A stretch of DNA of 64,000 nucleotides, from positions 5,450 through 69,449 of IMG/VR virus record IMGVR_UViG_3300014887_000002; one strand, given 5' to 3'. The DNA comes from a virus. The notes beneath the pieces were generated by a model. It saw only the letters and a program-made list of their open reading frames with translations. It ran no database searches and was not told the DNA's origin. The stretch's first letter is position 1, and the number at the start of each line of letters is the position of its first letter. Positions 7,519-39,194 of the stretch are shown one piece after another. Made by a program: the position numbers and the translations under genes.

Positions 7519-7519
7519 T

Positions 7520-9319: not shown

Positions 9320-9331
9320 GAGGTGAAATAA

Positions 9332-16432: not shown

Positions 16433-16433
16433 G

Positions 16434-22905: not shown

Positions 22906-23814
22906 ATGAGATTTGTGCAGATCCAGACGGTATCATATTGCAATGCTAGATGCATTATATGTCCGCATAAGGATTCATGGATGAAGACCCATCCTGGCTC
23001 AATGTCTGATAGTCTCTATGAGAAGATATTGACTGAGCTTACAGAATGGGAGGAAGAGCTCAATACCGGCAAGATGTGTCCATATCTGATGAATGAGCCA
23101 TTCTGCGATCCTAAGATCATAGACCGTATAAGGCTAATGCGGGAGATGTTCCCAAATGCCCTCATTGAAGTCTCCACTAATGCAGAGCTATTAACACCAG
23201 ATAAATCCAGGCAGCTAATAGACATCCTAGCCGATTCAAGGCATGACATCTGGATAAGCAGACATGGCATAACTCCAGAGGATGTTAGAAAGAATATGGG
23301 CATAGACGGCAATAAATCGTTAGAAAACATCATCTATCTGTTAAAAGAAGCTGATGGTAGACTCACCATAGCGATTAAGGGCTTCCTATACTCCTTCGAT
23401 AGCAAAGTCATATTAAGTAAGCCTAGAGCATTCGAGAGATATTGGCAGAAGCTATTCAAAGAGCATGACATCAAAACTAACAATATTCGAGTAATTGCCA
23501 AATCTTTCCATGACAGGTCAGGCAATGTCAGAATTAGAGGATGGCAAAAGCCAGCTATAGTTAGACACATAGGCCCCAAGAATAAGTTCTATTGTCCAAG
23601 AGTGGATCAATGGCTACATATACTCTGGAATGGTGATGTGATCCTGTGCTGTAATGACTACCAACATGAGGCTTGCTTTGGCAATGTCAAGAATAAAGCC
23701 ATAAAGGACATATTGAAGAGCGATAGCTATAAACGTATCCGAGATATGGTCTGTGGCAATGTAGAGACTCCACGAGATTTCATATGCAATAGATGCACGA
23801 GAAAAGGAGGTTAA
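22906..23814 (+). CDS. radical SAM protein with SPASM/twitch domain
   Basis: CNARCIICP; NEP; CPR...GDVILCCND...FGNV...CNRC. Confidence 0.9.
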   Translation: MRFVQIQTVSYCNARCIICPHKDSWMKTHPGSMSDSLYEKILTELTEWEEELNTGKMCPYLMNEPFCDPKIIDRIRLMREMFPNALIEVSTNAELLTPDKSRQLIDILADSRHDIWISRHGITPEDVRKNMGIDGNKSLENIIYLLKEADGRLTIAIKGFLYSFDSKVILSKPRAFERYWQKLFKEHDIKTNNIRVIAKSFHDRSGNVRIRGWQKPAIVRHIGPKNKFYCPRVDQWLHILWNGDVILCCNDYQHEACFGNVKNKAIKDILKSDSYKRIRDMVCGNVETPRDFICNRCTRKGG

Positions 23815-23820: not shown

Positions 23821-24312
23821 ATGAATAAGCTCGAAAGAATCGCCGTCGCCTTATTCGGACTAGCGCTTGCGCTGTCAATGGCACTAAATGTTGCCTTAAT
23901 CGGCAGACTCAAAGAAGAATCGGAAATGCCACCGATCCATCTTTCCCGAAGGATATCTGCAAACGAATTGCACCATTTACTCTCCGAAAAATTTCCTTAT
24001 GCACGCATATTCATTACAGATGAGTGGTATTATCTCATAAGCAAAAGAGATTTCGACAGACTTCTAGCTTACGATAAAACAGATTGTCATAGGTATATTC
24101 GAGTAATCTATGACTGCGATGACTTTGCCTTTGACTTTTGGAGGAATATAACGAGGCACTACCATATTGCTATGGGTGTGGCATTTGTTCTGACTGGTAA
24201 AGGAGCTCATGCTATCAACTTCTATGTGGACGAGAACTGCAGCGTGTATCTGATAGAGCCTCAGTCCGACCGGTATGTCCAATATGACTTCGTTTATCAG
24301 CTGCTGTTCTGA
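23821..24312 (+). CDS. membrane-anchored papain/transglutaminase-like protein
   Basis: N-terminal TM; YDCDDFA, HAINF, IEPQSD give a putative Cys-His-Glu triad. Confidence 0.65.
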   Translation: MNKLERIAVALFGLALALSMALNVALIGRLKEESEMPPIHLSRRISANELHHLLSEKFPYARIFITDEWYYLISKRDFDRLLAYDKTDCHRYIRVIYDCDDFAFDFWRNITRHYHIAMGVAFVLTGKGAHAINFYVDENCSVYLIEPQSDRYVQYDFVYQLLF

Positions 24313-24460: not shown

Positions 24461-25351
24461 ATGGCATATTCAGACTTAGTCACGGCTAATATCAAGACCT
24501 TCCTAAGGCCGGCTAAATTCAAAGCTACTCTGGACTATGTCATAAAAGCCGGTGTCCAAAAAGTAGTAGTAGGCTATGACGGTCCTAAGGAGCTGCTAGA
24601 AGAGCATAAGGCTATATGCGATGAATACAAGGACAAGATCGAGTCATTGGCCTTTAGAGCCTATCCATTTAATCTAGGCATAAGCGCTGTAAGAAATAGA
24701 ATGCTTAGCCTAAGCAAGACGAAGTATATACTGCTGCTAGATGATGATCAGTATGTCCCAGCTCATACGCTAGGAGCCATAGAGTTGATGGAGAAGTATG
24801 ACGATATTGGCGCTGTAGGCTTTGGATGGATCTTGCCTAATAAGTTTGAGATAGACGCGCATGATATCAAGCTAGTTAACGGCTACTATGTCCGAGTATT
24901 AGCCGGCGAAAAAGAAGGCGAATTTATCAATGGTCATCCATTCCTCTATGCCTTTGACTTCATTCCTAATAGCGCCATATTCAGGAAGGCTATATTCAGG
25001 GATGTCGCATGGGATGAGGCCTATAAGATCAATAGAGAGCATGAGGACTACTTCCTAGCTCATAAGCAGCTAGGCAAATGGCGATTTGCTATCGACTTAG
25101 GCGTATGGGTCTATCATGATATTGGTGGAGAAGAAGAGTATGCAGGCTATAGAAAAGGCATAGAGGCCAAAAGGAGTGTGAGATACTTCCGGAAGAAATG
25201 GCAGCTAAAGGGCATAGTGGGCAATCCCAGGCATCATACCAAGCTATTGGACTCATATGGCTATTTGATGCATGCTACGGACTATATGAAGCAGCTCTTA
25301 GAAAAGGCGATATTGGACAAGGTCAGCGAGGATGAGCTATTCCTATACTAA
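24461..25351 (+). CDS. GT2-family glycosyltransferase
   Basis: IKTFLRP, GYDG, NLGISAVRN, LLLDDD, WDE..K..REHEDYF. Confidence 0.85.
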   Translation: MAYSDLVTANIKTFLRPAKFKATLDYVIKAGVQKVVVGYDGPKELLEEHKAICDEYKDKIESLAFRAYPFNLGISAVRNRMLSLSKTKYILLLDDDQYVPAHTLGAIELMEKYDDIGAVGFGWILPNKFEIDAHDIKLVNGYYVRVLAGEKEGEFINGHPFLYAFDFIPNSAIFRKAIFRDVAWDEAYKINREHEDYFLAHKQLGKWRFAIDLGVWVYHDIGGEEEYAGYRKGIEAKRSVRYFRKKWQLKGIVGNPRHHTKLLDSYGYLMHATDYMKQLLEKAILDKVSEDELFLY

Positions 25352-25750
25352 AGAGCCTGAGATAAAGGCTTCTATTTTCACGTGAAAATCATTAGCATCA
25401 GTTATACGTTCTGAATACCGCTTTACATATATAACCGTGTCCGAATGCATCTCTGCAAGTCGAGTCCCAGATACAGGCGATAATTTAATAGTATTGGAGC
25501 CAAATGACGTATCGTAGTAAACAGGTCGGCCCAAAAGTCGATAAAGTTCGGCAACAGCTCCCGGCCTTATATTTGAGCGAAGCAGATCGCGTTGATTTCT
25601 ATTTAGATAAGTTTCGATTATTATGGTGTAATTGTCTTGGTCCCATCTAGAGCAAGGACAGGTTATTATGCTACCGCCCGAGACATAAATCCGGAGATCA
25701 TTTACAGTCATAAGCGCACACATTCCAGCCTTATTTTGAACAAATCCCAC
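25343..25750 (-). CDS. virion protein, paralogue 3 of triplicated domain
   Basis: CSRWDQDNY...PGAVAELYRLLGRP..YDT; real start probably ATG ~25711. Confidence 0.65.
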   Translation of the reverse strand: MGFVQNKAGMCALMTVNDLRIYVSGGSIITCPCSRWDQDNYTIIIETYLNRNQRDLLRSNIRPGAVAELYRLLGRPVYYDTSFGSNTIKLSPVSGTRLAEMHSDTVIYVKRYSERITDANDFHVKIEAFISGSLV

Positions 25751-26067
25751 CTCACCATATTTTCAGTGTATCTTCTCACTCCGACTTTTAAGGGACCCCG
25801 GAGGCTATAAAGGCCAGTACCTGAGAGAGGATAGATCCATAGAGTATTACCTGATGAATAAGTAGTGTCGATGAATCTCGGCTCTCCCAATATATTATAT
25901 AACTCGCTGATTGCACCAGGCGTGATTTTCGATAAAAGCTGGTCACGATCGGCCCTCTTTAATTCTATATCCAAAATGACCTCGTAGTTAGTTTCATCAA
26001 ACTCAGCACAGGGTGCAAATATCACTGTCTCATTCGGCAATACTATTTTTACTGTATTTTTCGTCAT
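25708..26067 (-). CDS. virion protein, paralogue 2 of triplicated domain
   Basis: PGAISELYNILGEPRFIDTTYS...WDLFKIRLECVRL. Confidence 0.7.
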   Translation of the reverse strand: MTKNTVKIVLPNETVIFAPCAEFDETNYEVILDIELKRADRDQLLSKITPGAISELYNILGEPRFIDTTYSSGNTLWIYPLSGTGLYSLRGPLKVGVRRYTENMVRWDLFKIRLECVRL

Positions 26068-28058
26068 AATTTAACGCATTCCAATTTTATTTTGAACAAA
26101 TCCCATCTTATCATAGTCTCTGCATAGCGTCGAACTGCAGCCGTAACAGGCGACTTTAAGGAAAAGAGACCTCGCTTCGGCTTTAGGACAAGAGTGTTTT
26201 GATTCGAATACGTCGTATCTATAAACTTTGGTTCACCCAATATATTATATAATTCCGCTACCGCTCCTGGCACAATATCAGACAAGAGTTTGTCGCGAGA
26301 ATTCTTATCAGCTATAAATTCAATAGTGATGGTGTAATTCTCTTCTTGCCATCTAGAACACCAGACAGATAGTGTTTCGTTCTTTGTTGTTATTTTGAGA
26401 TTACCAAAAATCTTAGCTACACGACGGACTAAATCGGACAAGCTCAGAATATCGGTAAGAGATATGGGAGCGGAGAGAGCAAGAAAGCCACTAAGACCCA
26501 GACTGTCGCAGAATAATTTCTCCTTTCCTATACCGAGGAAAACTGCCGGCGAGAAATAAAGATCATCTGTCAAAAGCAAAGCACCCGAAAAACCGATAAT
26601 GAGGCTGTCGGACAACATTATGCTATCTGCAAGAAGCTGACGGAGGACCTTTACGAGATAGGGCGTAAGATACAAACTCTCGAGACGGGAAAATGCAGTT
26701 TGTTTTTGAAGAAAAGCAGAAAGTGTGAACACATCCTCTAAGAGTCCTTCTCTTAATCTTTTTGCGAAAAGACTATCGTTAGGCGAGAGAAAAGCCGTTT
26801 TTACTATAGCTAGTCTGTTTAGAATAAGATCTGATAAGTTTGTGACTTCTATCAAGGCCTTCACGAGGAAAAAAATCTTATAATCAGCGAGATTGATGCC
26901 TTCCGACCAAGATACATGCGGCAGCTTGGAGAGATAATCATAAAGGAAGAGGGGGTCTTGTTTTAATATGCCGATACGAGAGCATCGACTATCTGATAGA
27001 GATGTGGTCTCTTCTTTAAGGACAGTAATATAGCGAAGGAGAGAAGGCGTTAAGCTGAGGCTATCCGTGAGAGTCTTAGAATATTCCTGACCAGATATTT
27101 CTGTCCATGAGCCAAAGGAAGACCATGTGGGTTCTGAGTCTGCATGCTTTCTTATAAAAAAGAAGTCCCAATATACTGTACCGCCATCGATGTCGCCATC
27201 CACACCAGGATATAAATTATTAAACGTCGAATCACTATGAGTCACTTCGAGTTTGTCGTCATTGTCATCATATACGTAAGCGTGAATTTCAGAAGTGCCC
27301 AATTCGAGAGTTACCCTATACCATGTATTCGTTGAAAAAGTACCTTCATTTGTTTGATAATTTTCTAAATAACCGCTCGTTTTTGTGATTCTAAGGGTCA
27401 TTCTTACGGAGCTCCTCAAATTAAAGTGATACCCTTCGATTTCATCGTAATTGTTTATACTAGTAGTTGAGGATTTCCCATAGCCAATTCCGCCATCGCA
27501 TTGCCAATCTAGATAATTCTGCTGAAATCGAGCCTCAATGGCAATCGGCCGTGAATAAGTGGTTTTCAGCTGATGCATATGCCAAGTATTACTGGTGTTT
27601 TTTCCCTTTAATCGGCTATTAGAGGTTTCCCATGTAAAGTTCGCCCCGCCAACTGTTCGAAAGTCTTCTGATTTATCGGTATCAAAGTGAGTAAAATAAA
27701 TGAAGGTGTCATCAGCCGAGCTATATTGACTTGCAGATGAATTTCCAACGAACATGTAGAATGTATTGCTACCATCACTTGGGCATTTCACCCAGATAGT
27801 TGCACTCGTAGCATCACTTTCTTCAATCCATTGAGCAAGTTGAGTGGCTGTCGAAGGCTTATTTGTCGTTCCAAAGCGAATATCGTTCGGAAAGTCTTCA
27901 CAGTGATTATCGCAATAAATTATCCCATCAGCAGTATTATCATCGCCATCGCCCGAATAGACCTTCAGCTTCATCTGATAGTCGGCACTAACATTAGCAG
28001 AGTCAGAAATATCAATCTGTTTATAGTAGGACCATCCACTAGATGGATCGAGAGCCAT
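26064..28058 (-). CDS. DUF2341 + ConA/lectin-like + repeat stalk + C-terminal triplicated domain; putative adhesin/tail fibre
   Basis: DIRF...WIE....ATIWVK...YMFVGN (DUF2341-like); beta-sandwich segment; D.L.L.D repeats; PGAVAELYNILGEP. Confidence 0.7.
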   Translation of the reverse strand: MALDPSSGWSYYKQIDISDSANVSADYQMKLKVYSGDGDDNTADGIIYCDNHCEDFPNDIRFGTTNKPSTATQLAQWIEESDATSATIWVKCPSDGSNTFYMFVGNSSASQYSSADDTFIYFTHFDTDKSEDFRTVGGANFTWETSNSRLKGKNTSNTWHMHQLKTTYSRPIAIEARFQQNYLDWQCDGGIGYGKSSTTSINNYDEIEGYHFNLRSSVRMTLRITKTSGYLENYQTNEGTFSTNTWYRVTLELGTSEIHAYVYDDNDDKLEVTHSDSTFNNLYPGVDGDIDGGTVYWDFFFIRKHADSEPTWSSFGSWTEISGQEYSKTLTDSLSLTPSLLRYITVLKEETTSLSDSRCSRIGILKQDPLFLYDYLSKLPHVSWSEGINLADYKIFFLVKALIEVTNLSDLILNRLAIVKTAFLSPNDSLFAKRLREGLLEDVFTLSAFLQKQTAFSRLESLYLTPYLVKVLRQLLADSIMLSDSLIIGFSGALLLTDDLYFSPAVFLGIGKEKLFCDSLGLSGFLALSAPISLTDILSLSDLVRRVAKIFGNLKITTKNETLSVWCSRWQEENYTITIEFIADKNSRDKLLSDIVPGAVAELYNILGEPKFIDTTYSNQNTLVLKPKRGLFSLKSPVTAAVRRYAETMIRWDLFKIKLECVKL

Positions 28059-28060
28059 GC

Positions 28061-28483
28061 TTAGTCTCTAATCCTAATATCCCACGTGTCATCAGGCAAT
28101 TGGGCCATAAATGCATGCTTCTTTATGAGCTTAGAGCCATCATCAACCCAAACCTCTAGTATTGCTCGCTTATGCTCGTCATCGGTTGTGAGGATACTCC
28201 AGAATATTACGCCTTCTTGTTTCATTAGCTCTTCCTCCGCCTTTTCTCTAAGAATATTCACCCATGGAATCTCGGACGGTCTTGGAATTGGATTCTCAGA
28301 ATACCAGTAGGAGCCATCCTCTGCTCTCCAGATATGAAGTCGCTTATAACGGACTGTATCGCCGTCCTTATACCACAGATCATACTCTTGGATCTTGCCA
28401 CCAGCAGTTGTACCTTTATCTTCTAGCTTCAGTACATCATAATGCTTCTGTATCTCACTTATCAGCTCAGTTATGCTCGGCAT
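28061..28483 (-). CDS. hypothetical protein
   Basis: ORF in virion operon. Confidence 0.55.
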   Translation of the reverse strand: MPSITELISEIQKHYDVLKLEDKGTTAGGKIQEYDLWYKDGDTVRYKRLHIWRAEDGSYWYSENPIPRPSEIPWVNILREKAEEELMKQEGVIFWSILTTDDEHKRAILEVWVDDGSKLIKKHAFMAQLPDDTWDIRIRD

Positions 28484-28509
28484 AATTTATCGCCTATGTT
28501 TTTAAACAT

Positions 28510-29361
28510 CTAACCACCAAATACTTCTCTCTCTAGACGTGCAACTTTTACTGCTATGTCATAAGGCTCGGAGCCGAAGTTAATCGTCGTAGTAAAGCCA
28601 CTTTTATCTATCCTGTGTTTATAGGAGACTATGTTGAGATTCTCGTTAAAGCCTAGATGAGGCAGCTTGAGTCTGAATTTAGAATTGAGGGATATGCCGG
28701 TAACGCCGTATATAGTAATGCTGCCAGTGTAGAGTCCATCCTTATAAGTCTCGACGATAGTTCTAGCTAAGGTCTCAGCATCATTCCTGTTGACTATTAA
28801 ATCCTCTGATCTTCTCTGGAAGTGCAGTCCATATTTTTCTATAGAGCCAGAGTCAGCATACAAACCGGTGATATTATCGTAGTTGAAGCCTAAGATGACA
28901 TCAAGCTTGTGATTAGGATCCTGACTCCACGAAGAGCCGCTATCAGTCGAATAGTAGAGGGACTTAGCTATATCCTTGACATGTAGCCAAGTGACAGCCC
29001 CCGAGATATGGGCAAAATCACCGACATCACCCTGCCCAGAGCAGGCAGTGTCTATGAGTGAGAATCGAAGGGTGGAAAAGTTATGGGGCCTACCATCGCC
29101 AAATTGGACATTGCCATCTAGCGTTAGGTCCTCCAACTTGATGGCGTCTTTGAATTCTCCGTCTATATAAAAATAAAGCTTATTGCCAGATATTCTGCAG
29201 GTATAAGAACTAGAGCCCGTAGGAAACCATAATGTAGTCTTGTGCTGTGGATAAGTTCCTTTTTTCATTCTGATCCAGGTCGAGACAAATGCTCGGACTC
29301 TCTTCTGGAACGAATCTGCAAAATAGAATGGAAAGGTATAAGGAAAGCCCTCGTTACTCAT
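28510..29361 (-). CDS. tail tip/hub-like protein, C-terminal half
   Basis: DSGSIEKYG...DAETLARTIV...GSITIYG...YKHRI...FTTTINFG resembles C-termini of hub/tail-tip proteins. Confidence 0.6.
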   Translation of the reverse strand: MSNEGFPYTFPFYFADSFQKRVRAFVSTWIRMKKGTYPQHKTTLWFPTGSSSYTCRISGNKLYFYIDGEFKDAIKLEDLTLDGNVQFGDGRPHNFSTLRFSLIDTACSGQGDVGDFAHISGAVTWLHVKDIAKSLYYSTDSGSSWSQDPNHKLDVILGFNYDNITGLYADSGSIEKYGLHFQRRSEDLIVNRNDAETLARTIVETYKDGLYTGSITIYGVTGISLNSKFRLKLPHLGFNENLNIVSYKHRIDKSGFTTTINFGSEPYDIAVKVARLEREVFGG

Positions 29362-29894
29362 TCGTCTTTATACTTATCAAGTAGGACCTGAAGATAATGC
29401 CTAGACAGCTCAAAAATCGGCGGCTGGAAACGAGCAAGGCTCCTAAGACGGCTTAGTAGCTCCCGCGATACTGACAAATACTCTGCCACTGTCAAAGTCT
29501 GATCTATTAGTCGAATAGCTAGTAAGATGTCCACTTCAAGGTCCTTGTTATTCTCGAATGCCCTATTCCAGTTATAGAGGAGGGTCAATAGCTGTCTGAT
29601 CATTTCACGCATTTCTGAATCTAACGGATTTTCGATAATAAGTACCTTGGTCTCCTGAAGAAAGCTATCAAGGACGGCTCTTTTGGCTTTAGGCTTTACA
29701 TTATCTCTCCTCATCTTCGCCTCCACATCGTCTATGGCCTTGTTTAGTTCTAGTTTATAGAGCTTCTTCCACTTTGAGCCATATAGTTCTGAAAGAATCC
29801 GCCTATCGAGAAGCCTTTTTAAATACTCTATTTCTTGCATACTCATACGCCTCCAACAGCAGTTTAATAGATGCCTTCTTTTCTGGTATAACAC
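29358..29894 (-). CDS. helical hypothetical protein coupled to the radical SAM pair
   Basis: Overlaps rSAM stop and next start; likely start MSMQEIEY (~29846). Confidence 0.6.
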   Translation of the reverse strand: MLYQKRRHLLNCCWRRMSMQEIEYLKRLLDRRILSELYGSKWKKLYKLELNKAIDDVEAKMRRDNVKPKAKRAVLDSFLQETKVLIIENPLDSEMREMIRQLLTLLYNWNRAFENNKDLEVDILLAIRLIDQTLTVAEYLSVSRELLSRLRSLARFQPPIFELSRHYLQVLLDKYKDE

Positions 29895-31140
29895 GAGACA
29901 ACATATCCTGCAATAAGCCTAGCTTCTTAAGCTCCAATATGATACCTAGTATCTTCCAATGCTCAGCCATGCAGACTGTTGGGATGGGAGCAAACATATT
30001 GCCTGTAGCCTCAAACTGGGCTCCTAGACATCCGCCACTGCAGAGATATTTAAGTATACAAGACTCGCACACTGGGAAGTCTCTGGTAGTGGCAGATAAG
30101 ATGCTAATTAGGACTTCTGGGTTTCTAGCCTTTACGCCAACTATATGGCCCTTTCTGACGATGAATTTGCCGGCCACCAATGGCTCATAGGACAGCCTGT
30201 GGCAAGGCACGATAGCTAGGTCTCCCAATCGAACAGTCAGTGTGCTTTGTATTGCACAGCCTATGCCTCTACCACACGTTGTAAATGGAGAGCTAAGAAT
30301 GTTAAAGCCTCTGCCTTTAAAGATGAAATCAAAGAACGCCTTCGGATCCTGCTTAGCAATCTCCTCCCAAACATATCGGACTAAGAATCGCATGAATTTA
30401 TAGAGCTCGTATATTTGCCTCTCATTCCACTCCTCATTTCTGACTTCTAGCAAGTATAGGCTATCCTTAGGCAAGCCGTATTTCTCATGCATTTCCATGA
30501 ACCACAGGAAGTTCTTTTGCCATAGCTCTATGCCGTTTGAATAAATCATTGGATGGAAGCCGAAGCCCCATTTAGCAGCGAATGCAAAGGCCTTATCATA
30601 GAAGGCATCATCATAAGGCTTATTGCATTTGAATGGTCTATTAAGACCTTGCAAGTATTTACCATCTATAGACGCAGAGAGGAAGACCCGCCTAGCCTTT
30701 AGCCGTTCCTCTATCTCAGCTGTAAGCTCGTCATCATAGAGGAATGTCATGTTAGTCGGAATGACGATCTTAGCCTTAGGCAAATTCTCTAAGACGTAGT
30801 CGAGAATATCGAAGAAATACGGTAGCATCGTAGGCTCACCGGAGAAGATTTCTAGTCTTCCAGCAAAGTCTTTTTCCTTTAGCCAGTCTGTTAATATCTT
30901 GCTATTCCTGATAATCTTATCAGCTCTTCTTAGGCGCTTTGGATAAAGCTCATTACCATATCGCCTGAGGTAGCAATAGCGGCAATTCAGATTACAGTCT
31001 GTAGTAATGTAGTATTCGACGTTATCGAAATTCATTAAGCCTTCTTTTAGTCCCCTTTCAAATGTATGGCTCAAGACAGAGGCCAGCAGCCTATTCTGTT
31101 CTTTGTAATACGTCTTTGAGGAGTTCTCTAAAGGCTCCAT
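29803..31140 (-). CDS. radical SAM/SPASM peptide-maturase-like enzyme 2
   Basis: CNLNCRYC, SGEP, SIDG, full SPASM: CGRGIGC...PCHR...CESCILKYLCSGGCLG...C. Confidence 0.9.
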   Translation of the reverse strand: MEPLENSSKTYYKEQNRLLASVLSHTFERGLKEGLMNFDNVEYYITTDCNLNCRYCYLRRYGNELYPKRLRRADKIIRNSKILTDWLKEKDFAGRLEIFSGEPTMLPYFFDILDYVLENLPKAKIVIPTNMTFLYDDELTAEIEERLKARRVFLSASIDGKYLQGLNRPFKCNKPYDDAFYDKAFAFAAKWGFGFHPMIYSNGIELWQKNFLWFMEMHEKYGLPKDSLYLLEVRNEEWNERQIYELYKFMRFLVRYVWEEIAKQDPKAFFDFIFKGRGFNILSSPFTTCGRGIGCAIQSTLTVRLGDLAIVPCHRLSYEPLVAGKFIVRKGHIVGVKARNPEVLISILSATTRDFPVCESCILKYLCSGGCLGAQFEATGNMFAPIPTVCMAEHWKILGIILELKKLGLLQDMLSRVIPEKKASIKLLLEAYEYARNRVFKKASR

Positions 31141-32377
31141 TGCCCCACAACTTTATCAACGTAGTAGGCATCACATTGACTGATGACGTATTGAGGATAT
31201 TCTCCATAGGACAAGAAAAGGCAGTGTTAAGGAATAAGGCAAGGAGGGTAGCTATGTCATCATTGAGATATACTGAGGATATCTGACCAGCTATAGCTAG
31301 TTCTTTGATCAGGGATACTGTGCTAACCAATTTATTCCTCCAGAAGTCATGATAGCATCGCAATGCATATTTGAGCCTAAGGACCTTCTCTTCATCGTCT
31401 ATAGGTACGATGTAAAATTTATTCAGCAAGTCTATTGCATTCCGCTCTAGCAAGGACACATCCCAGTTCTTATATTCCGGCATCTTAAGGATCTCTTCTA
31501 GATATCGCTCCTCATTGAGGAAGAATGTTCGATGACATATGTGCAGGCAAGCCTTATGATCAAAGCCAAAATTAGAGTCGCCTCCTGAGCAAGTGAACAT
31601 TGATGGCTTCATTGGCAAGGCGGGATAGAAATCCATTAACCGGCAGAATCTCCAAGTATAGGATGAGGCGTGGTATTTATGCAGCTCTTGCAGGAATCTA
31701 CCAAATAACCGTCCATCGTCTACAGTATATCGACCAGGAACCTCTAGGGTATAATTAAAACTGGGCTTGAATATCACCTTTTTATTTTTGATAGATCTGA
31801 CGATTCTCGATTCTAGATCCTGGCCGAAATCAAGGACATCTTTCATTAAGTTATTTTCCAAAATATATTCCATATTAGCTGGCGTTAATGTAGGCTTCAA
31901 TTTAAGCTCCACCTCGGTGGGCAATTCTTTGTGATTGAGCCAGTCTATGAAGGCGAAGATGTTATCCATGACCTTGGCTAATATGCCGGGCATTCTGTTC
32001 ATGCCATTTATGTATTCAGGTCCATCAATAGAAAACTGAATATCCAGCTTGTAGCCGTGGCTTACGACAGCATTAGTTATTTTCTTTAAATTCCCCAAAT
32101 TTGTTCCATTTGTTGAGAATGATATGTTTTCTAGGTGAGGCAGATGCCTTGAGGCTTCCTTGAGACAGCTGATTACTAGCTCGACCGGTAAGGTTGGCTC
32201 AGCGCCCCAAAAACCAAGATATTTAAGTGAAGTCGGTAACTTCCTCATAAGAGAGGGCATAACCCTGAGAGTCTCTTGCAAATACCCCATGCTCTTGCCT
32301 TTTGGGATATAACAATATCTACAGCGAAGATTGCATATAGAAGAAATGAATATTTCGATAGACGTCATAATTCTCAC
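31091..32377 (-). CDS. radical SAM enzyme 1 (degenerate SPASM)
   Basis: CNLRCRYC, WGAEP, STNG, SIDG, CSGG...ICHR; later Cys cluster largely lost. Confidence 0.9.
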   Translation of the reverse strand: MRIMTSIEIFISSICNLRCRYCYIPKGKSMGYLQETLRVMPSLMRKLPTSLKYLGFWGAEPTLPVELVISCLKEASRHLPHLENISFSTNGTNLGNLKKITNAVVSHGYKLDIQFSIDGPEYINGMNRMPGILAKVMDNIFAFIDWLNHKELPTEVELKLKPTLTPANMEYILENNLMKDVLDFGQDLESRIVRSIKNKKVIFKPSFNYTLEVPGRYTVDDGRLFGRFLQELHKYHASSYTWRFCRLMDFYPALPMKPSMFTCSGGDSNFGFDHKACLHICHRTFFLNEERYLEEILKMPEYKNWDVSLLERNAIDLLNKFYIVPIDDEEKVLRLKYALRCYHDFWRNKLVSTVSLIKELAIAGQISSVYLNDDIATLLALFLNTAFSCPMENILNTSSVNVMPTTLIKLWGNGAFRELLKDVLQRTE

Positions 32378-32721
32378 CTAACATCAGAGTTATATGAATC
32401 ATCGACATAGGTGTTTTCGCCATTATCATAAGACAAATCCTCGCCTGCATAATAAGTGGCCTCGGCAGTCGAATTATACGGATCATAGTCGGAGTCCTTA
32501 TAAGCGTCACGCTGAATAGTATTTATAGTCGAATCGTGGCCATTGTCGACGGAGCTGTAATCATCGCTATCAACATTTAGATCGTACGCCGAATGAACGC
32601 CTGATTTGTGCGTAATACACGCGAGATTATCCTTAATCGAGTCGATGTTCTGACGAAGTTCAACGATATGGCTTTTTCGAATAATATCACCGATCTCAAT
32701 AGAAGACCATTCAAAGGCCAT
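32374..32721 (-). CDS. leader + tetrapeptide-repeat protein 2 (putative rSAM substrate)
   Basis: W..I..GDIIR.SH..ELR motif, then C-x-x-HKSG and ~19 four-residue units. Confidence 0.75.
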   Translation of the reverse strand: MAFEWSSIEIGDIIRKSHIVELRQNIDSIKDNLACITHKSGVHSAYDLNVDSDDYSSVDNGHDSTINTIQRDAYKDSDYDPYNSTAEATYYAGEDLSYDNGENTYVDDSYNSDVR

Positions 32722-32735
32722 GTCTACGCTTTATA

Positions 32736-33302
32736 TTAGCCTTCAGAACCATAATAAGCTCCATGCTCAGTTTGAAAATCGTTATTATGCTCGACTTTAT
32801 AGTATGCACCTCTATGGTCCCAATATACGGTGGGGTCAGCACCTGATTCATAATCGTCACGATTGTCGGAATAGAATAATGTGCGATTGCTAACCCAATG
32901 AGACCCATAAACATCCGAATAATAGGAACCCCGGTCTGTCGAAAAATCTCCGCTTTTATGCGAAGATTCAAAGCTCGAATCATAGCTACTGTTTTCTCCT
33001 GATTCAACTCCGCTTTTGTGACTGCCATCATAATTAGAATCATCACTGTAATCCACAGAGATTCGATAACCGCTAAAGTGATATCGACAGTAGTTCATAT
33101 CATCTGCATAGTCAGTCTTATCTCTTAGCTCTTGGATATGATCTTTCTTGATGATCTCACCTACACTAACAGGGAAATAGGTCCAAGACGGCGGACTCAA
33201 GAGCAATTCGTCATATAAGTCTTCCAGATTATCCTTGATTTCATTGAAATGCGATGCTCTAATTATATCGCCCTTATTGATAGGAGTCCAAGAATAGCCC
33301 AT
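32736..33302 (-). CDS. leader + tetrapeptide-repeat protein 1 (putative rSAM substrate)
   Basis: Two copies of the W..(I/V)..G.II...H..E motif, then C-x-x-HFSG and ~28 four-residue units. Confidence 0.75.
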   Translation of the reverse strand: MGYSWTPINKGDIIRASHFNEIKDNLEDLYDELLLSPPSWTYFPVSVGEIIKKDHIQELRDKTDYADDMNYCRYHFSGYRISVDYSDDSNYDGSHKSGVESGENSSYDSSFESSHKSGDFSTDRGSYYSDVYGSHWVSNRTLFYSDNRDDYESGADPTVYWDHRGAYYKVEHNNDFQTEHGAYYGSEG

Positions 33303-33314
33303 AGCTCTGCCCTA

Positions 33315-33521
33315 TTATCCGTACACAGCTAGTGGGCCTAATGGCTTCCAGGATGTGCCATCATAGATATATAGGCAGTGCTCATCGAGTTTGTAGAAGA
33401 CATCGCCTTCATCGGGATCCTCTGGGAAGGAGAGGCCACTCTTGAAATAATGTGCGCCTTCTAGCCACTCCTGTTTTGACAGCTCATCGCCAACATCCCT
33501 ATGCTCTATTCCCTTAGCCAT
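33315..33521 (-). CDS. small tail-fibre-type protein
   Basis: FPEDPDEGDVFY..D...LYIYDGTSW motif typical of fibre proteins. Confidence 0.6.
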   Translation of the reverse strand: MAKGIEHRDVGDELSKQEWLEGAHYFKSGLSFPEDPDEGDVFYKLDEHCLYIYDGTSWKPLGPLAVYG

Positions 33522-33522: not shown

Positions 33523-34965
33523 TCACAGATCGAATTCTATGCCAAACATAGTCCTGGTAACAGACTCATAATCACATAAGCCTATTCTAAGCCTAGGCCT
33601 AAATCTGCCATCATCGGTGTGGAGCCAATCGCCCATACCAGCTCCAGAAGCATAAGAGTGAATCTGGGTGGAGATTGTGAATTCAATTTGGTCAGTAAAT
33701 GCCGGATTGTCTAGTTGGACATCGGCAATACGCTCTGAATCATAATCGAGATACGTATTGGCCGAAGCATAGCCCCTGCATTTGGCAACAAACTTAATGG
33801 AGTCAGTCGAGTCATCCCACCAGACATCGCCATAGTCTATACCGTTTAGGTCCCAGTTCTTAACGATAGTCGGCTCAGAAGAAAAGTCATACGTATCATC
33901 TATAAGGTCGATGTAGCCTATTTTCCAAAACTTTGACGACGTAGCATTTGGTGCATGAAAGACCATAAAATAGGTCTTATCCTTCTCGAGAGGCAGTCCT
34001 TTGATGAAATTATGCTGAAGATAAGTTGTAGCGATAGACCTCGGTACATCAGCGCCATGCCAAGCTATTCTGTCTGAGGATGGGACTATACTACCAGGCA
34101 GATCGGATTCTTCTTCCTGTATATGACCTTTGAGAACGTCTGGAATCTCAGAGCCCGATATCGAGACCTTCGCTAATACAGCCGATAAAATATCTCTTCG
34201 GAGAGGCGGCATACCAAATTTTTGAGCCACAAATTTATTGGGTGAATCGAGGACGAAAAAGCCAGCATTGCTTTCTGCTCGCCTAGAGGGCATTAGCCGC
34301 TCATAAGCCCTAGCCCCCACAACCAGAGACTTATTAATGACAGTTTCATCGGATTTCTCTATAGGCGTCATTCTGATGATATCCCCTTCTGTAACCGTAA
34401 ATTGGACTGTAGGCTCTATCTCATAATAATGCAACTTGCCGAAGTTGTCGACATAGAAATGCCTGCCATCAAACTTTGATATTCTGGCTATCGCATCACC
34501 GACTGCCATGAGCGAGACATCTATCTTCTCGATATAATTACCTTCGTGGTTTGTGACATCCGGTGGAATGACATATATGCCCCCGCCTGAGCAGTATGAA
34601 GCGACAAGGGAGGAGACAATATAGCAAGAATAGCAAGACTCATAGACTGTGTGCTCGGGAATGTGGAAGCGCCACAGGTCGTATGTCTTCCCAATGCATT
34701 GAATGTCGATAACTGGAGTGCCACCCAATGCCTGCTGTATCCTCGAAATATATCCAGTAAATTCGAGAGAGTCATTAATATAGATATGAACAGTGTCATT
34801 GATTGTGAACTGAGTAGGGTCACAGTCGAATAAACTTATTTTGGCGTCCTTAAAGTATTTCTCATTAGAGTTGGTGATCTCTAATAGCCTGACTTTATTA
34901 TCAGCCCCTGTGATTGTCATAGCATTTGACTGCCCAGATCTAAATATAATCTTAAATGTCGTCAT
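33523..34965 (-). CDS. tail tip/hub-like protein, N-terminal half
   Basis: Follows TMP; EFTGYISRI, IQCIG, FYVDNFGKLHY, INKSLVVG pattern of hub proteins. Confidence 0.65.
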   Translation of the reverse strand: MTTFKIIFRSGQSNAMTITGADNKVRLLEITNSNEKYFKDAKISLFDCDPTQFTINDTVHIYINDSLEFTGYISRIQQALGGTPVIDIQCIGKTYDLWRFHIPEHTVYESCYSCYIVSSLVASYCSGGGIYVIPPDVTNHEGNYIEKIDVSLMAVGDAIARISKFDGRHFYVDNFGKLHYYEIEPTVQFTVTEGDIIRMTPIEKSDETVINKSLVVGARAYERLMPSRRAESNAGFFVLDSPNKFVAQKFGMPPLRRDILSAVLAKVSISGSEIPDVLKGHIQEEESDLPGSIVPSSDRIAWHGADVPRSIATTYLQHNFIKGLPLEKDKTYFMVFHAPNATSSKFWKIGYIDLIDDTYDFSSEPTIVKNWDLNGIDYGDVWWDDSTDSIKFVAKCRGYASANTYLDYDSERIADVQLDNPAFTDQIEFTISTQIHSYASGAGMGDWLHTDDGRFRPRLRIGLCDYESVTRTMFGIEFDL

Positions 34966-37900
34966 GTTGGCGCAGCTGATCTAGCGCGATACTTCAACTC
35001 ATTCAGAAACTCCTCAACATTCATTACACCCTGAACATATATCGGACCGGTGATAGTCCAGTTTTCAGTGAAAGTCGTGGAGATGGCAGGTGTGAGTTCA
35101 CCATATAATCCGCCGTATTGAGCAGTGAGCTCCGGCAGATATTTTGGAATGAATGCGGCAAGGAGTTTTGCTGTGCGATGAGGATAATTCAGGGGCAGGA
35201 GCAGCTCTGGTCCTTTCTCGCCCGCTATAAGTATAGTCGGCCTACGAATCAGCCCACCAAATTGGCCATAGGGAATCCCCTCTTCTATAAGGCGTTGGAA
35301 TTCTTCTTTTGATATTACTCCTGGTTCTGGCCAGCTTTTGCCCATTTGCTCCCATACTTCCTTCGGCACGAGGATGGGTATGCCCATTGGCCCTGGGATA
35401 GGCATGTATTCAGGTCCTGCCTCCTCTGCGACCTTCTTAACCTTGACCTTTATAGTCACAGTCCACGTTTTGGCTATATCATCCAAAGCCTCCTCCAGAG
35501 TTTTGAGTTCATCCCGTATAGCCCGAATATTTGGTATGGCCCTCTCTTTCGCTCTTTCCACTGCTGAATTAAAGTCATCCCAAGAATCGGCACCGGGAAT
35601 GAGAGGCAATATATCATGATAAGAAATCGTTCGATACAAGCCTAAATAAGCTTCGCCTACCTTAGCTATCGTTAGGGCTGCGACAGCTTGCTCTTCAGTC
35701 AGGGTATCCCACGTTATAGTCTGATCATTCAAGGTCTCCCGAATTCGTTGAAGCATGAGGTCTGAATCGCCAAGGGCATCGGTGAAGACGCCCAGCCCTC
35801 TTGCTGCCTCCATAAAGGCGCCCTCCATAGTGGAGGTTGCCTCTGAGCTCATATACACTGACCGCCAATAGTTCCAAATTGTCTCGGTAATGCTAGCGAA
35901 ATTTTCACGTTGGCTTTGCAAAGCTGCTGTCAAATCCTGCTCAGCTATTTTGAGTTCCTTTGATATTCCAAGCAAATCATAATATGCCGCTGCCAAATCT
36001 CCAGTCGCCACGTCACTCTTAACCAATTCTCCCAAAAGCGTTTGTAGGCTAGACCGAAGCTCGTTAAGGCTCTCCCTATATTCGGCCAATGCATCTACAT
36101 ATTCCAATGCAATATCCACTTGGTCCGAACTAAGGAATTCTGGCGGCGCTGGAAGTGCCTTACCGGCAGCCTTGGCCTCTTCATAAGCTGCAACCCATTC
36201 TAATAATTCACGTCTCTGCTTTGGCGTTAATGTACTAAGTAGGCGAGAGAATTTTATCTGAGCCTTCATCATAGCGCCATAAGATTCTTCCATCCTCTTT
36301 CTGCCCTCTATGAGATCTTCAGTGATCCAGCCCTCTTTGATCAAGGCATCCCATATATCTCGTATTTCCTTGAGCGAGATATGTCGGAGCTTATATAACT
36401 TTTCTTCAATATCGAGGACCTTCTTTTCAGACTCTGCGAGATTCCTGAATTTTTCGGCTAGCACTTTGTTTATATTATCATGGATAAAAAGAAGAGCGTT
36501 GAGCTTAGCCTCAAGCTCCAGCCTCTTAGCCTCCAATTCTTGAAGCATATACTGTTTCTCATAAAGGTCCATCATCGTCTCTGCGACCTGCCTCTCCGCT
36601 GCATCAAGGCCCTCCAGTATATTTGTTCTATCTGCCTCTAAGTTCTTCAGCTCCTCTGTGATATCCCGCCGCTCTTCCCCGATCTCGATCATATTTTGAC
36701 CAACTGTGATTAGGCGATTCCAGAGGTTTAATGCTCTCTCAGACTGTGCGCCTTCCTCCGCAACGGCCTTTGCATATTCATCCATCAAGCGCTCTTTCTC
36801 TGAAAATAGTTCATTATCCCTTCTTTCTAGTTGTGCAACCCGATATTTCTTCTCGTAATATTGATCGAGATTAGTAGCCAGCTCGGTCAGACTAGGACTA
36901 AGAGAGGATAATATCTTTATCAGATTAGTGAAGTGCGTGTTAACATCCGCTTCTGCCTCCTTTAGATCCTCCTCTGCACGCTTAATTGCCTCCAGCACCT
37001 CCTGGAATTCCTCTCCTCTTTCTCTGGCCTCTTCAAAACGAGCCTTTTGCTCCGCAAGCACTTCATTTGCCTCTTTGACTCGTCGAACTGCATCCTGCCA
37101 TGCCTCGAATTCCGAAATGATTTCTGGCAATTTATCGCGTACTTTATCTGCTACTGTCGGAATGATGCCAAGGGCCTCTCCAATCCTCCTTCCGAAGCCG
37201 GCGATTTCGTCTTTAAAGGTCGCTATAAATGGTAATGCGGCTGATAAAGCCGTAACTAACAAGCCAAATGGCCCGGTTACAGCTATCTTTAGGAGCTTGA
37301 GGGCAAAGATCACCGACATCAAATTGCCTACGGCATTAATGGCCGCAACCCCAAATTTATTAAGGCCCGCCTCCACAGCCGCGCTGCCCACCACTACTCC
37401 TGCCATTGCCGGAAGCATCGCTGCGAATGCTGTCTTGAGGGATATAGCCCTGTCACGCACATTAGCCAATGTGATCGCCAGGAGCGTTAATGCTGTGACG
37501 GCAGCCTTTGCCATGTCTGGTATTTTGTCGCCAGCTAGAGTGAATGCTATCATTTCAGCTGTAAGGAGACCAAAGGAGCCCCACAGCACCCTCGCAGTAG
37601 TGTTGAGCTTAAGAGTCCTGTCGAGGAATACTGCGATATTTACGCCTGCTTGTTTTAGAGCAGCTCCAAAGCCATAAGTGGAAAGAGTTGCAGCTATTAA
37701 GTTCTTGTTAAGGACCGAAAATAAGAAGGAGAGAACTTTAAGTATACCCAAGGTGAATACTGCAGCAGAAGCGGTGGAAATTAGTATCCCGATAAATGTC
37801 TTGCCACCTGCACCTGCAGCACCAAATATTTTACCGAGAATGGAAAGGGGAGCCAGCATTGCACGGAAAGCTGGTAGGGCATAAGTTCTGATGGCGTCCG

Positions 37901-39194
37901 CAGTAGTAACAATTACAGGCTTAAGGCGACTGCCGAAGTCTTCTGCTAATAGGACTACCGCATTCCGGAGAAGGCGAAGAGCTCCCCAAAGAGTAGCTAT
38001 TTGCTTAGAGGCTATTTCTTCAGTTATTCCAGCGGAAGTTCTTAGGACAGAAGAGAGATGAGCAACTTCGTCGGCATTTTCAACCAATGCTATCGCTGCA
38101 GCCGCTGTTCTTGCTCTAAACATTGCAGAGGCCTCTGCAGCGCTGAAGCCAGCCGCTCTAAGCTTATAGAGGATATCGACAAGAGAAGTTGTTTCGGGAT
38201 TTAGCTCAGCCACTGATAAGCCTAGCGATGCTAATGCCTTCTCGGCCTCCTGAGTTGGTTTAAGCAATTTAGTCAGTATCATATTGAGTCTCTGGCCAGC
38301 CTGTGATCCCTCATAACCACGATCCACGAGAACCGCTAATGACGCTAATACTTGTTCCAAAGGAATACGTAGCTCTCCGGCTATAGCCCCAACATATTTC
38401 AGGCCTTCAGAGAGCCTCTGGGCGTTTAGGAATGAATGGGATATAACAGCAGTGAATTTATCAACAATGGAAGCCGTAGTCTCGCCTTGTTCCCCAAATT
38501 CTTTTAGCGTCTTAATGACTATCTCAGTAGCATCGGCCAGATCAATCTGTTGAGCAGCAGCATAATTTAATATCGGCAGGAATTCCTTCTCAGTGAATTT
38601 AGTGACGTCATAGCCTGCCGATGCAACTGAATACATTGCCTCTGCTATTTCGTTAGCGGAATAGATTGTCTTAGCCGATAATCGTAGTGCAAACCGCCTT
38701 ATAGCCTCGACAGCATTATCAAATGCCCTGCCGAAATATCCTGAGACGGAGGCAGCCATTACGACTGCTTTCTCGAACTCCTGGAATGTATTGACTGCCC
38801 AAGTTAGGGCTCTTATGGACCGCATGACTATCTGAACTCCAATAGTGAAGCTCAAATAATGCTCGATGTGCTGGGCTAATGCCCTTATACGAGACTGCCA
38901 AGCAGAGAGAGTCCTGTCAGCCTTAGAGACATCTATGACTGGGGTCCACTTGCCAGTCTCTAGCCATTCGAAGTGCCTTCTTAAGTCCTTGACGACTGGT
39001 GCGAATCTTCTGCTGACATTTCTCTTGAAGTGTGTTGCCCAATGACGCATTGATGTCGTGATGGGCCTAGACAGATTATCAGCTACTTGCCTGCCTATTG
39101 CTTTGGCTGCTAATGGGAATTTCTTTAGAGATGCTAATGCAGGCCGTATATCTATATCAAGCCGCCATGCATCATAAGAGACTGGACCAGGCAT
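34962..39194 (-). CDS. tail tape measure protein
   Basis: 1410 aa; TP901-type core (TIYSANEIAEAMY, GLKYVGAIA, GSQAGQRL), hydrophobic segment, long coiled coil; follows chaperone. Confidence 0.92.
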   Translation of the reverse strand: MPGPVSYDAWRLDIDIRPALASLKKFPLAAKAIGRQVADNLSRPITTSMRHWATHFKRNVSRRFAPVVKDLRRHFEWLETGKWTPVIDVSKADRTLSAWQSRIRALAQHIEHYLSFTIGVQIVMRSIRALTWAVNTFQEFEKAVVMAASVSGYFGRAFDNAVEAIRRFALRLSAKTIYSANEIAEAMYSVASAGYDVTKFTEKEFLPILNYAAAQQIDLADATEIVIKTLKEFGEQGETTASIVDKFTAVISHSFLNAQRLSEGLKYVGAIAGELRIPLEQVLASLAVLVDRGYEGSQAGQRLNMILTKLLKPTQEAEKALASLGLSVAELNPETTSLVDILYKLRAAGFSAAEASAMFRARTAAAAIALVENADEVAHLSSVLRTSAGITEEIASKQIATLWGALRLLRNAVVLLAEDFGSRLKPVIVTTADAIRTYALPAFRAMLAPLSILGKIFGAAGAGGKTFIGILISTASAAVFTLGILKVLSFLFSVLNKNLIAATLSTYGFGAALKQAGVNIAVFLDRTLKLNTTARVLWGSFGLLTAEMIAFTLAGDKIPDMAKAAVTALTLLAITLANVRDRAISLKTAFAAMLPAMAGVVVGSAAVEAGLNKFGVAAINAVGNLMSVIFALKLLKIAVTGPFGLLVTALSAALPFIATFKDEIAGFGRRIGEALGIIPTVADKVRDKLPEIISEFEAWQDAVRRVKEANEVLAEQKARFEEARERGEEFQEVLEAIKRAEEDLKEAEADVNTHFTNLIKILSSLSPSLTELATNLDQYYEKKYRVAQLERRDNELFSEKERLMDEYAKAVAEEGAQSERALNLWNRLITVGQNMIEIGEERRDITEELKNLEADRTNILEGLDAAERQVAETMMDLYEKQYMLQELEAKRLELEAKLNALLFIHDNINKVLAEKFRNLAESEKKVLDIEEKLYKLRHISLKEIRDIWDALIKEGWITEDLIEGRKRMEESYGAMMKAQIKFSRLLSTLTPKQRRELLEWVAAYEEAKAAGKALPAPPEFLSSDQVDIALEYVDALAEYRESLNELRSSLQTLLGELVKSDVATGDLAAAYYDLLGISKELKIAEQDLTAALQSQRENFASITETIWNYWRSVYMSSEATSTMEGAFMEAARGLGVFTDALGDSDLMLQRIRETLNDQTITWDTLTEEQAVAALTIAKVGEAYLGLYRTISYHDILPLIPGADSWDDFNSAVERAKERAIPNIRAIRDELKTLEEALDDIAKTWTVTIKVKVKKVAEEAGPEYMPIPGPMGIPILVPKEVWEQMGKSWPEPGVISKEEFQRLIEEGIPYGQFGGLIRRPTILIAGEKGPELLLPLNYPHRTAKLLAAFIPKYLPELTAQYGGLYGELTPAISTTFTENWTITGPIYVQGVMNVEEFLNELKYRARSAAPT

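Follow-up and report, generated by a model that had tools for sequence, protein, structure and literature searches.

The 64,000-nucleotide (nt) window analysed here, positions 5,450 to 69,449 of the IMG/VR virus record IMGVR_UViG_3300014887_000002, contains a cassette of six minus-strand genes (29358-33521) encoding two radical S-adenosylmethionine (SAM) enzymes, rSAM1 and rSAM2, two leader-plus-repeat proteins, p188 and p115, a helical accessory protein and a further small protein, p68. The window is part of a record of 69,449 bases with a completeness rating of 98%. The virus is tailed, encoding an HK97-type capsid protein, a prohead protease, a portal protein, a terminase and a tape-measure protein, and it also carries genes for a family B DNA polymerase and an anaerobic ribonucleotide reductase. 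The cassette lies within a run of 11 minus-strand genes extending from 39194 down to 26064, in the order tape-measure protein, p480, p68, p188, p115, rSAM1, rSAM2, helical protein, p283, p140 and p664, neighbouring genes overlapping or lying no more than 26 nt apart throughout. p115 and rSAM1 overlap by 4 nt, rSAM1 and rSAM2 by 50 nt, rSAM2 and the helical gene by 44 nt (measured from the likely start of the latter), and the helical open reading frame (ORF) and p283 by 4 nt; the remaining gaps in the cassette are 1-14 nt. These values agree with the original prediction of a tightly coupled cassette of rSAM and leader-repeat genes within the tail module. Neither promoter-like sites (39 versus 29.9 +/- 5.3 in shuffled sequences) nor terminator-like sites (14 versus 10.6 +/- 3.4) were in excess over the operon stretch, and the 11-gene run is consistent with a single predicted operon.

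rSAM1 (31091-32377, minus strand) and rSAM2 (29803-31140, minus strand) score 34.7 and 37.9 bits, respectively, with PF04055, above its gathering score of 29.5, and are thus members of the radical SAM superfamily. Of 31 relatives of rSAM1, 30 retain its CX3CX2C motif (C15, C19, C22) and all retain exactly three additional cysteines (C263, C281, C389); a CX2CX5CX3C motif is absent. For rSAM2, both the CX3CX2C motif (C49, C53, C56) and seven SPASM cysteines (C295, C313, C358, C361, C367, C371, C390) are kept in 34/34 relatives; the defining C-terminal SPASM motif (CX9-15GX4C ... CX2CX5CX3C ... C) is one that binds two auxiliary clusters. The full SPASM domain originally assigned to rSAM2 therefore holds as a cysteine pattern only, since TIGR04085 reaches 22.4 bits against a cut-off of 27 and the Pfam SPASM model gives no match. 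The two enzymes are paralogues (hhalign probability 97% over 264 columns). Because their profile alignment reaches through the first SPASM half, including a common C...CHR element, rSAM1 can be regarded as a half-SPASM, twitch-like form with one three-cysteine auxiliary site.

The best NCBIfam match of both enzymes is PapB (55.3 and 57.9 bits versus a cut-off of 340), and the top profile matches are peptide or protein maturases, namely PapB, HxsB, cyclophane synthases and twitch enzymes, all of them under cut-off. The closest solved relatives are ChlB for rSAM1 (E 4.9e-9) and PDB 5wgg, which we take to be the sactisynthase CteB, for rSAM2 (E 1.8e-10), in both cases over the N-terminal core only. 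Grouping of the enzymes with sulfatase or cofactor maturases, the outcome named beforehand as unfavourable to a peptide-maturase reading, was not seen: identity as a sulfatase maturase was rejected at 17.2 and 23.5 bits with TIGR03942 (cut-off 349), and as a cofactor maturase at 28.1 bits with MoaA (cut-off 284). Neither enzyme gave a specific NCBIfam match to cofactor or nucleoside rSAM families, and a PADLOC scan returned generic viperin-core matches only. rSAM2 has 936 database relatives at E<1e-5; its tree, with an unresolved backbone, points to no donor or origin. Elsewhere the window contains a third radical SAM/SPASM gene (22906-23814, plus strand; PF13186 and PF04055), with a tungsten-cofactor maturase model as its best NCBIfam match (57 bits versus 380). 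It is preceded by a 359-amino-acid (aa) ORF and followed by genes for a lectin-like protein (23821-24312) and a GT2 glycosyltransferase (24461-25351). The window further encodes, at 20812-21147 (plus strand), a SAM decarboxylase (TIGR03330, 109.5 bits versus 75.65).

The putative substrate A, p188 (32736-33302, minus strand), consists of a duplicated N-terminal recognition domain (residues 1-72, ending in DYADDMNYCR) and a 116-residue repeat core (73-188), and the putative substrate B, p115 (32374-32721, minus strand), of just one recognition domain, which ends at Cys35 (residues 1-35), and a core of ~78 residues. Their common motif W..I..G..I....H..E occurs twice in p188 (WTPINKGDIIRASHFNE, residues 5-21; WTYFPVSVGEIIKKDHIQE, residues 40-58) and once in p115 (WSSIEIGDIIRKSHIVE, residues 5-21), and is followed at the junction with the core by CRYHFSG (72-78) in p188 and CITHKSG (35-41) in p115. 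A leader hidden Markov model (HMM) derived from related loci matched p188 at 1-36 and 39-68 and p115 at 1-37, so that both the copy number of the motif and the C-x-x-H-x-S-G junction stand as first described. In an alignment of 21 B-type proteins (A3), M1, W5, G11 and E21 are invariant, and I8, N25, D31 and C35 are kept in at least 90%; junction C-x-x-H/D is present in 50 of 70 leader proteins. p188 and p115 each contain one cysteine, located in the junction. The cores thus lack cysteines past this point, as had been noticed from the start, and sacti- or ranthipeptide chemistry for the core was rejected on the single cysteine per substrate together with the PapB scores given above.

Neither p188 nor p115 matched Pfam or NCBIfam at E<=0.1 or a PHROG structural family, and no signal peptide is evident at their N-termini (MGYSW and MAFEW). 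AlphaFold2 modelled residues 1-70 of p188 with a predicted local distance difference test score (pLDDT) of 83-94, each of the two leader units forming an extended segment followed by a helix. Comparison of the p188 model with BFVD gave nothing below E 0.1, the top two entries being uncharacterised rudivirus proteins; in an Atlas structure search, the N-terminal domain aligned to large viral fn3/Ig-domain proteins. The A-type leader domain was found in 432 representative clusters at E<=0.001. Among the best 150 of these, 146 are proteins of 83-330 aa, in all but three of which the domain starts at residue 1 or 2; the sequences of 10 of the 150 were inspected directly. Three long leader-profile matches (P0137, P0148, P0254) were deemed spurious by eye, given their repetitive chemoreceptor-type look and a GDFNEIKNNLN-type motif. 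A secreted repeat protein of 522 aa (P0256) has three leader-type motifs (W..I..G..I.A.H..ELR) at ~440-522 and no repeat tail, so the leader-type motif is a small domain used outside the module too.

The cores are rich in few residues. Over the first 49 cores collected (5,763 residues) we counted 12.9% S, 12.2% D, 10.4% Y, 10.0% N, 9.8% T, 8.6% G, 5.1% H and 1.3% C, and the composition is strongly acidic (D+E 15.6% versus K+R 4.0%). This matches the S/D/Y/H/G-rich tails of the original prediction, which had them as merely low-complexity; they are instead strict four-residue repeats of roughly the form (Y/H/V/D)-(D/N)-(S/T)-(G/S/T). In the set of 70 cores available after a metagenome scan, autocorrelation of aromatic residues gave z values of +12.5, +14.8, +12.8 and +15.9 at lags 4, 8, 12 and 16, and of about -11 to -13 at lags 2, 6, 10 and 14. 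For S/T, z was +22.5 to +25 at multiples of four and -20 to -23 between them, and D/N and G displayed the same period. Aromatic-x-S/T units were enriched 1.8-fold (567 versus 313.5 +/- 14.4 in shuffled cores), and aromatic-(D/N/K)-(S/T/G) units numbered 304 versus 108.4 +/- 9.3. Counted from just past the last leader-HMM match, p188 (from residue 69) has 13 aromatic-x-S/T units and p115 has 5; H-x-S is only scattered, as HFS and two HKS in p188 and as HKS and HDS in p115. No DNA tandem repeats were found in the p188 and p115 genes, and the period-4 pattern is therefore not the product of recent duplication. Core lengths among relatives are highly variable (70-250 aa), and in one related locus (L032) a LamG-domain protein is fused to the leader motif and a Y/R/S/T repeat tail.

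The helical accessory protein comprises 162 aa from its likely ATG (29358-29846, minus strand), the mechanically called ORF (29358-29894) starting at a GTG at 29894. Its helical nature, proposed originally, was borne out by an AlphaFold2 model of seven helices (mean pLDDT 82.9). NWN and PPAFELSRHYL are conserved motifs. Homologous genes occur in 26 of 32 distinct loci; three of the others end too early (L004, L005, L028), and L008, L019 and L033 are without a detectable homologue. Searches with the protein gave no Pfam, NCBIfam (E<=0.1) or PHROG match and no usable Atlas match, and comparison of its model with the PDB by fold reached E 0.34 at best. Identity as a PqqD-like recognition element domain was rejected, as the protein is all-helical and without a match, and identity as HxsD was rejected at an hhalign probability of 0.65% against a true HxsD. 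A complex prediction of rSAM2, the helical protein and the p115 leader (1-48), run without controls, gave scores of 0.01 and 0.00 and is uninformative either way.

The module recurs well beyond the window. Searching IMG/VR with p188 gave seven loci, with both rSAM genes in all six that contain enough DNA; the seventh (L004) ends just past the substrate genes. An alignment-based search with rSAM2, at one genome per species, returned 25 loci, in every one of which rSAM1 is directly upstream of rSAM2, whereas a single-protein search of the genome contigs found nothing. Leader-bearing repeat proteins are encoded upstream in 22 of 32 distinct loci. Among the other ten, seven have no upstream DNA, two (L020, L030) have another type of substrate, and L033 has none within 2.4 kb upstream. 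A leader-first scan of metagenomes, performed with the narrower alignment A5 because A3 and A4 are too divergent for pattern scans, yielded 17 loci, three of them identical to viral-locus contigs, and rSAM genes adjoin the leader genes in 12 of the 13 with informative flanks. The search for co-occurrence of leader motif and rSAM genes suggested earlier thus had a positive outcome, and with rSAMs in 12/13 leader loci the repeat proteins are not commonly found without such neighbours. The arrangement, seen in dozens of independent contigs, exceeds chance. In the GenBank phage collection there was no DNA match and no rSAM2 protein match.

In the window and in its close relatives, the cassette always lies between p68, p480 and the tape-measure gene on one side and p283, which comes right after the helical gene, on the other. 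The tape-measure protein (34962-39194, minus strand; PF10145, E 1.7e-32) and the upstream tail gene p480 (33523-34965, minus strand; no Pfam, NCBIfam or PHROG match) are syntenic in L002, L003 and the metagenome loci. The downstream genes p283, p140 and p664 (26064-29361, minus strand) were assigned to the tail tip from their position, a weak YQBQ-like match of p283 (E 0.0049, under cut-off) and a DUF2341 match of p664 (E 3.8e-13). p68 (33315-33521, minus strand; C-terminus ..AVYG) directly precedes p188, and its homologues sit before the p188-like gene in L002, L003 and 10 metagenome loci. Its place in the module is uncertain, and the fibre-type identity originally given to it is unproven, its sole family match being phrog_8309 (E 0.0021). 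In distant viral-type contigs the cassette comes after fibre-like genes (fn3, LamG, Ala-rich), found directly upstream in L011 (a 739-aa fibre), L015 (a 1,428-aa fn3 protein), L027, L029 and L031 (Ala-rich or repetitive fibres) and L032.

Some further features of these regions were recorded. Two small ORFs downstream of p664, p119 and p135, are paralogues of its last ~110 residues (window 25343-28058, minus strand), and the corresponding DNA forms direct repeats of 72-79% identity; these small ORFs may represent alternative or spare receptor-binding tips. The protein encoded just before the substrates, small protein or long fibre alike, ends in a common ..(A/T)VYG or ..VYY(S/T) (window 33315-33521; L004 7649-7960; L011 5449-5817; L015 1144-5430; L016 4215-4502; L029 3201-4130), with a CxxC...zinc-ribbon extension after it in several loci. 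In L015, rSAM2 and the helical gene are separated by an inserted GT1 glycosyltransferase gene (9269-10207); in L009, rSAM1 is an 803-aa ORF (2466-4877) whose long C-terminal extension looks glycosyltransferase-like by eye; and in L008 a 339-aa ORF (4712-5731) separates the two rSAM genes. Some lineages may in addition glycosylate the Ser/Thr-rich tails.

The module is not specific to viruses, since it is also chromosomal in contigs labelled candidate phyla radiation (CPR) bacteria and DPANN archaea. Pfam places pyruvate:ferredoxin oxidoreductase and RecG genes in the flanks of two loci labelled Parcubacteria (L016, on a contig of 92.6 kb, and L017, on one of 238 kb), where a NifU-like gene was read by eye; the flanks of L020 hold H+-pyrophosphatase and ClpP genes (Pfam) and a trigger factor gene (by eye). 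In L016 and L017, genes for the twin-arginine translocation (Tat) components TatC and TatA lie just upstream of the substrates (Pfam), and homologous ORFs were read by eye in L009-L011. They are followed in the CPR-labelled loci by a protein with a twin-arginine (RRxFLK) signal and a zinc-ribbon protein, both small and recognised by eye. Across 27 loci, TatC is the commonest Pfam family in the flanks (6 of 150 ORFs), and two of the 150 are archaeal-type RNA polymerase subunits. As the substrates are without signal peptide, their export by hitch-hiking is conceivable in the CPR loci.

The labels of genome bins do not give the host, because several bins probably contain viral contigs; the rSAM2 proteins of L024 (bin labelled Nanoarchaeia) and L027 (Paceibacterota) are near-identical sisters with branches of 0.12 and 0.08, and L018, a contig from a bin labelled Omnitrophota, equals the viral record L006 in length (56,298 bp). 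At 5254-9319 (plus strand), the window itself carries replication and repair genes with an archaeal/eukaryotic flavour: one for a SWIM-Rad51/RadA-like ATPase, one for an ERCC4-HhH nuclease, one for a PolB-type exonuclease and one with a weak prim-pol match. It also encodes an ATP-dependent ligase and PolB. By their sequences, these replication and repair genes would fit an archaeal virus, as a hint and not as proof. The host domain, given as archaeal in the original prediction, is not established.

On balance, we favour the reading that the module is a protein-maturation system of a previously undescribed radical SAM family, with full-length tail-repeat proteins as its products and, in this virus, tail appendages as their form. 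The two paralogous enzymes, together with the dedicated helical accessory protein, would act on the co-encoded p188 and p115, whose role as substrates we infer. The N-terminal domains and the junction motif would direct both enzymes to the tail, along which they would proceed with one radical-mediated modification per tetrad. The likeliest chemistry would be a side-chain cross-link in the aromatic-x-Ser/Thr units, resembling triceptide cyclophanes or an HxS-type modification, and a separate event at the junction cysteine is possible. A disordered tail would in this way become a stapled, rigid and protease-resistant structure, the products remaining full-length proteins. In ultra-small bacteria and archaea, where the module lies beside TatA/TatC, the product would probably be exported. 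Cross-linking, to which we give roughly a third of the weight, is the leading chemistry; modification of Ser/Thr or of Asp/Asn is the alternative.

Maturation of whole proteins is preferred to release of a small peptide because the cassette has no peptidase or exporter, because the cores measure 70-250 aa and because of the LamG fusion in L032. A role in the tail is favoured because the reading frames overlap within the tail operon and fibre-like genes lie upstream in diverse loci. From the operon position next to fibre genes, p188 and p115 as virion tail appendages appear a good possibility that falls just short of probable.

Several observations weigh against this interpretation. Gene position is all that places p188 and p115 in the virion, and the module is also chromosomal, without tail genes, in the CPR- and DPANN-labelled contigs. 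No NCBIfam family model reached its cut-off for rSAM1 or rSAM2, so that the chemistry cannot be read from homology. Junction C-x-x-H/D is absent from 20 of the 70 leader proteins, and the repeat tails are modelled with low AlphaFold2 confidence (pLDDT <50 over residues 83-184 of p188). The first repeat position is V/A/D and not aromatic in L024, L027 and P0214, and such relatives without aromatics in the repeat weaken a purely cyclophane reading. In one leader locus (L052), which resembles a rearranged L008 type, the 2.8 kb downstream are free of rSAM genes and the upstream DNA is missing. The repeat tails could also serve a structural role that needs no modification.

The main rival to a virion appendage is an envelope effector that resembles the product of HXS (HxsABCD). 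HXS is described as an antiphage system in which the radical SAM enzymes HxsB and HxsC and the small protein HxsD mature HxsA, which carries five HxS repeats (PMC13128918). According to the same source, maturation includes processing at the N-terminus and a change of +8 Da on an SHRSS motif, and mature HxsA is periplasmic and stops phage DNA entry. By analogy, the matured repeat proteins of the virus-encoded cassette would not be virion parts but would reach the host envelope in the course of infection, either blocking the DNA entry of competing viruses or countering an HXS-like defence of the host. We regard this as improbable. With its adjacent rSAM pair, small accessory protein and repeat effector, the architecture does resemble HXS as outlined in PMC13128918; the trio of rSAM1, rSAM2 and helical genes stands beside true HxsD and HxsB genes and a gene for an HxsA3-like protein in L020 and L030, and the frequency of TatC in the flanks of cellular loci (6/150 ORFs) suggests export. 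Yet the cassette overlaps within the tail operon and adjoins fibre genes in diverse viral contigs, p188 and p115 have no evident signal peptide and no peptidoglycan-binding or other Pfam domain, every Hxs model failed, and the cores are acidic, unlike the HxsA repeats, which according to PMC13128918 bind DNA and abound in basic residues.

A classical pathway to peptides that are made ribosomally and then modified post-translationally (RiPPs), in which the leader would be removed and one or more small modified peptides released as toxin or signal, is very unlikely. The layout of leader and variable core and the RiPP maturases among the best profile matches of both enzymes are what such a pathway would have, and a secreted peptidase-like gene was seen by eye between the substrates and rSAM1 in L027. 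Against it, the window cassette and most loci lack a peptidase, C39 transporter or immunity gene, with no peptidase or transporter family among the genes of the window cassette and their neighbours. The cores, 78 and 116 aa in the window, are long and of highly variable length among relatives, and the N-terminal domain, predicted with high confidence to fold, aligns to large viral fn3/Ig proteins; in addition, L032 has the LamG fusion. Of the RiPP-like logic originally proposed, the conserved recognition part and variable repeat core thus stand, and the released peptide is not supported, given the missing leader peptidase and exporter and the long cores. Least likely of all, by a little, is that the enzymes act on a cofactor, sugar or nucleic acid and the repeat proteins are unmodified neighbouring fibres or adhesins: modification of p188 and p115 is deduced from sequence, glycosyltransferases are inserted or fused in the cassettes of L015, L009 and L008 and the window has further sugar-related genes, but the co-occurrence spans viral and cellular contexts that otherwise have nothing in common, the substrate type shifts with the partners of the trio (the HxsA3-like proteins of L020 and L030 keep C-x-S/T-H/D and D/S/Y-rich tails), and there is no specific match to cofactor or nucleoside rSAM families.

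Radical SAM enzymes are known to mature small peptides (RiPPs) and, as found very recently, a single effector of bacterial defence (HXS). A literature search, limited for subscription journals and supplements, gave no report of an rSAM-modified virion protein and none of this module. If the repeat proteins are tail appendages, viruses of anaerobes would have a new way to build or harden adsorption structures. The enzyme family is large and uncharted, with 936 rSAM2 relatives at E<1e-5 and 432 leader-domain clusters, and its tetrad-repeat substrate is unusually regular and tractable. The Tat link in CPR-labelled contigs and the genuine Hxs genes connect virus tails with the surface biology of ultra-small cells and with anti-phage defence. 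A broader scheme, in which tailed viruses and episymbiotic CPR/DPANN cells would have a common tetrad-repeat-stapling machine that makes a new kind of covalently cross-linked protein fibre, being in the virus the first radical-SAM-modified structural (tail or adsorption) protein of any virion and in cells a Tat-exported surface fibre, with the machine an evolutionary sister of HXS defence, is speculative and, in our view, rather unlikely.

Among known systems, the thioether-forming SPASM maturases represented by PapB and 5wgg are the top matches of the window enzymes, and the conserved junction cysteine of the substrates is reminiscent of them. The PapB scores are far under the cut-off of 340, however, and thioether rings cannot be the repeated modification, because each window substrate has one cysteine and some relatives have none. 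The CXXX-repeat target rSAM system (TIGR04115, PF27846) shares a target periodicity of four residues, and Atlas clusters partly assigned to PF27846 (23-25% of members, mostly viral) resemble the p188 N-terminal domain (features 0.82, TM 0.73). We take both as leads only: rSAM1 scores 24.8 bits with TIGR04115 against a cut-off of 350, and the window cores are without Cys repeats. Our literature search found no paper on this system.

Triceptide synthases are described as joining an aromatic residue to the C-beta of the +2 residue on repeated aromatic-X-X motifs (PMC11499958). ChlB, HaaB, HtkB and YhhB are rSAM/SPASM enzymes in that account, and the aromatic-x-S/T enrichment of the window family matches a +2 cross-link as described there, whereas relatives without aromatics do not. 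Cyclophane models score 20-30 bits on the window enzymes against cut-offs of 310-450 (YhhB 28.6-30 versus 445; GrrM 21.1 versus 310; XyeB 20.8 versus 450). The substrates of the window family are proteins with dozens of units, some relatives having no aromatics, and two enzymes and a helper are encoded here in contrast to the one enzyme of triceptide systems.

The closest described system is HXS (PMC13128918), which the original prediction did not name. As far as that source describes it, the likeness extends to two adjacent rSAMs, one of SPASM type, to an accessory protein that is small and not an enzyme, and to a substrate that carries short His/aromatic-x-Ser repeats and ends up as a mature protein, not as a small peptide. 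The differences, taken from the same description, are that the window repeats are acidic and of period 4 and those of HXS basic HxS triplets, that the window has two substrates with a distinct folded N-terminal domain and neither signal peptide nor peptidoglycan-binding domain, and that gene order and context differ, the window family residing in viral tail operons or CPR/DPANN chromosomes and not in Pseudomonadota, which hold 99.7% of HXS systems (PMC13128918). None of the Hxs models recognised the cassette proteins: rSAM1 and rSAM2 scored 32.2 and 33.8 bits with the HxsB model TIGR03978 (cut-off 370) and 26.7 and 23.3 bits with the HxsC model TIGR03977 (cut-off 267.9), the helical protein gave no match at E<=0.1 to the HxsD model TIGR03976 with its LLNDYxLRE motif, and the HxsA features of signal peptide, peptidoglycan-binding domain and tandem His-Xaa-Ser are absent from p188 and p115. 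In profile comparisons, rSAM2 aligned with a true HxsB over 119 core columns (hhalign probability 77%) and rSAM1 with an HxsC-like protein over 83 columns (73%). On these alignments, the similarity of the rSAM pair to HxsB/HxsC is that of the generic core only, and homology of the trio to HxsBCD is not implied.

The two systems meet in L020 (3189-9852) and L030 (2284-9783), where the rSAM1-rSAM2-helical trio comes directly after genes for HxsD, HxsB and an HxsA3/4-like protein; no HxsC was found at the Hxs site of either locus. HxsD of L020 scores 64.2 bits (cut-off 50) and that of L030 was identified only by 50% identity to the L020 copy; the HxsB proteins score 514 and 500 bits (cut-off 370), and the HxsA3/4-like proteins fall just under their cut-offs (55.6 versus 65 and 51.1 versus 55). 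L020 contains a second set at 14487-17197, with HxsA4 (61.2 bits versus 55) and two HxsC-like rSAMs. The L020 and L030 substrates combine an Hxs-type leader and HGS repeats with the C-x-S/T-H/D motifs and D/S/Y-rich tails of the window family. Judged from these sequences, both loci provide genomic evidence that the trio may act on HxsA-like whole proteins.

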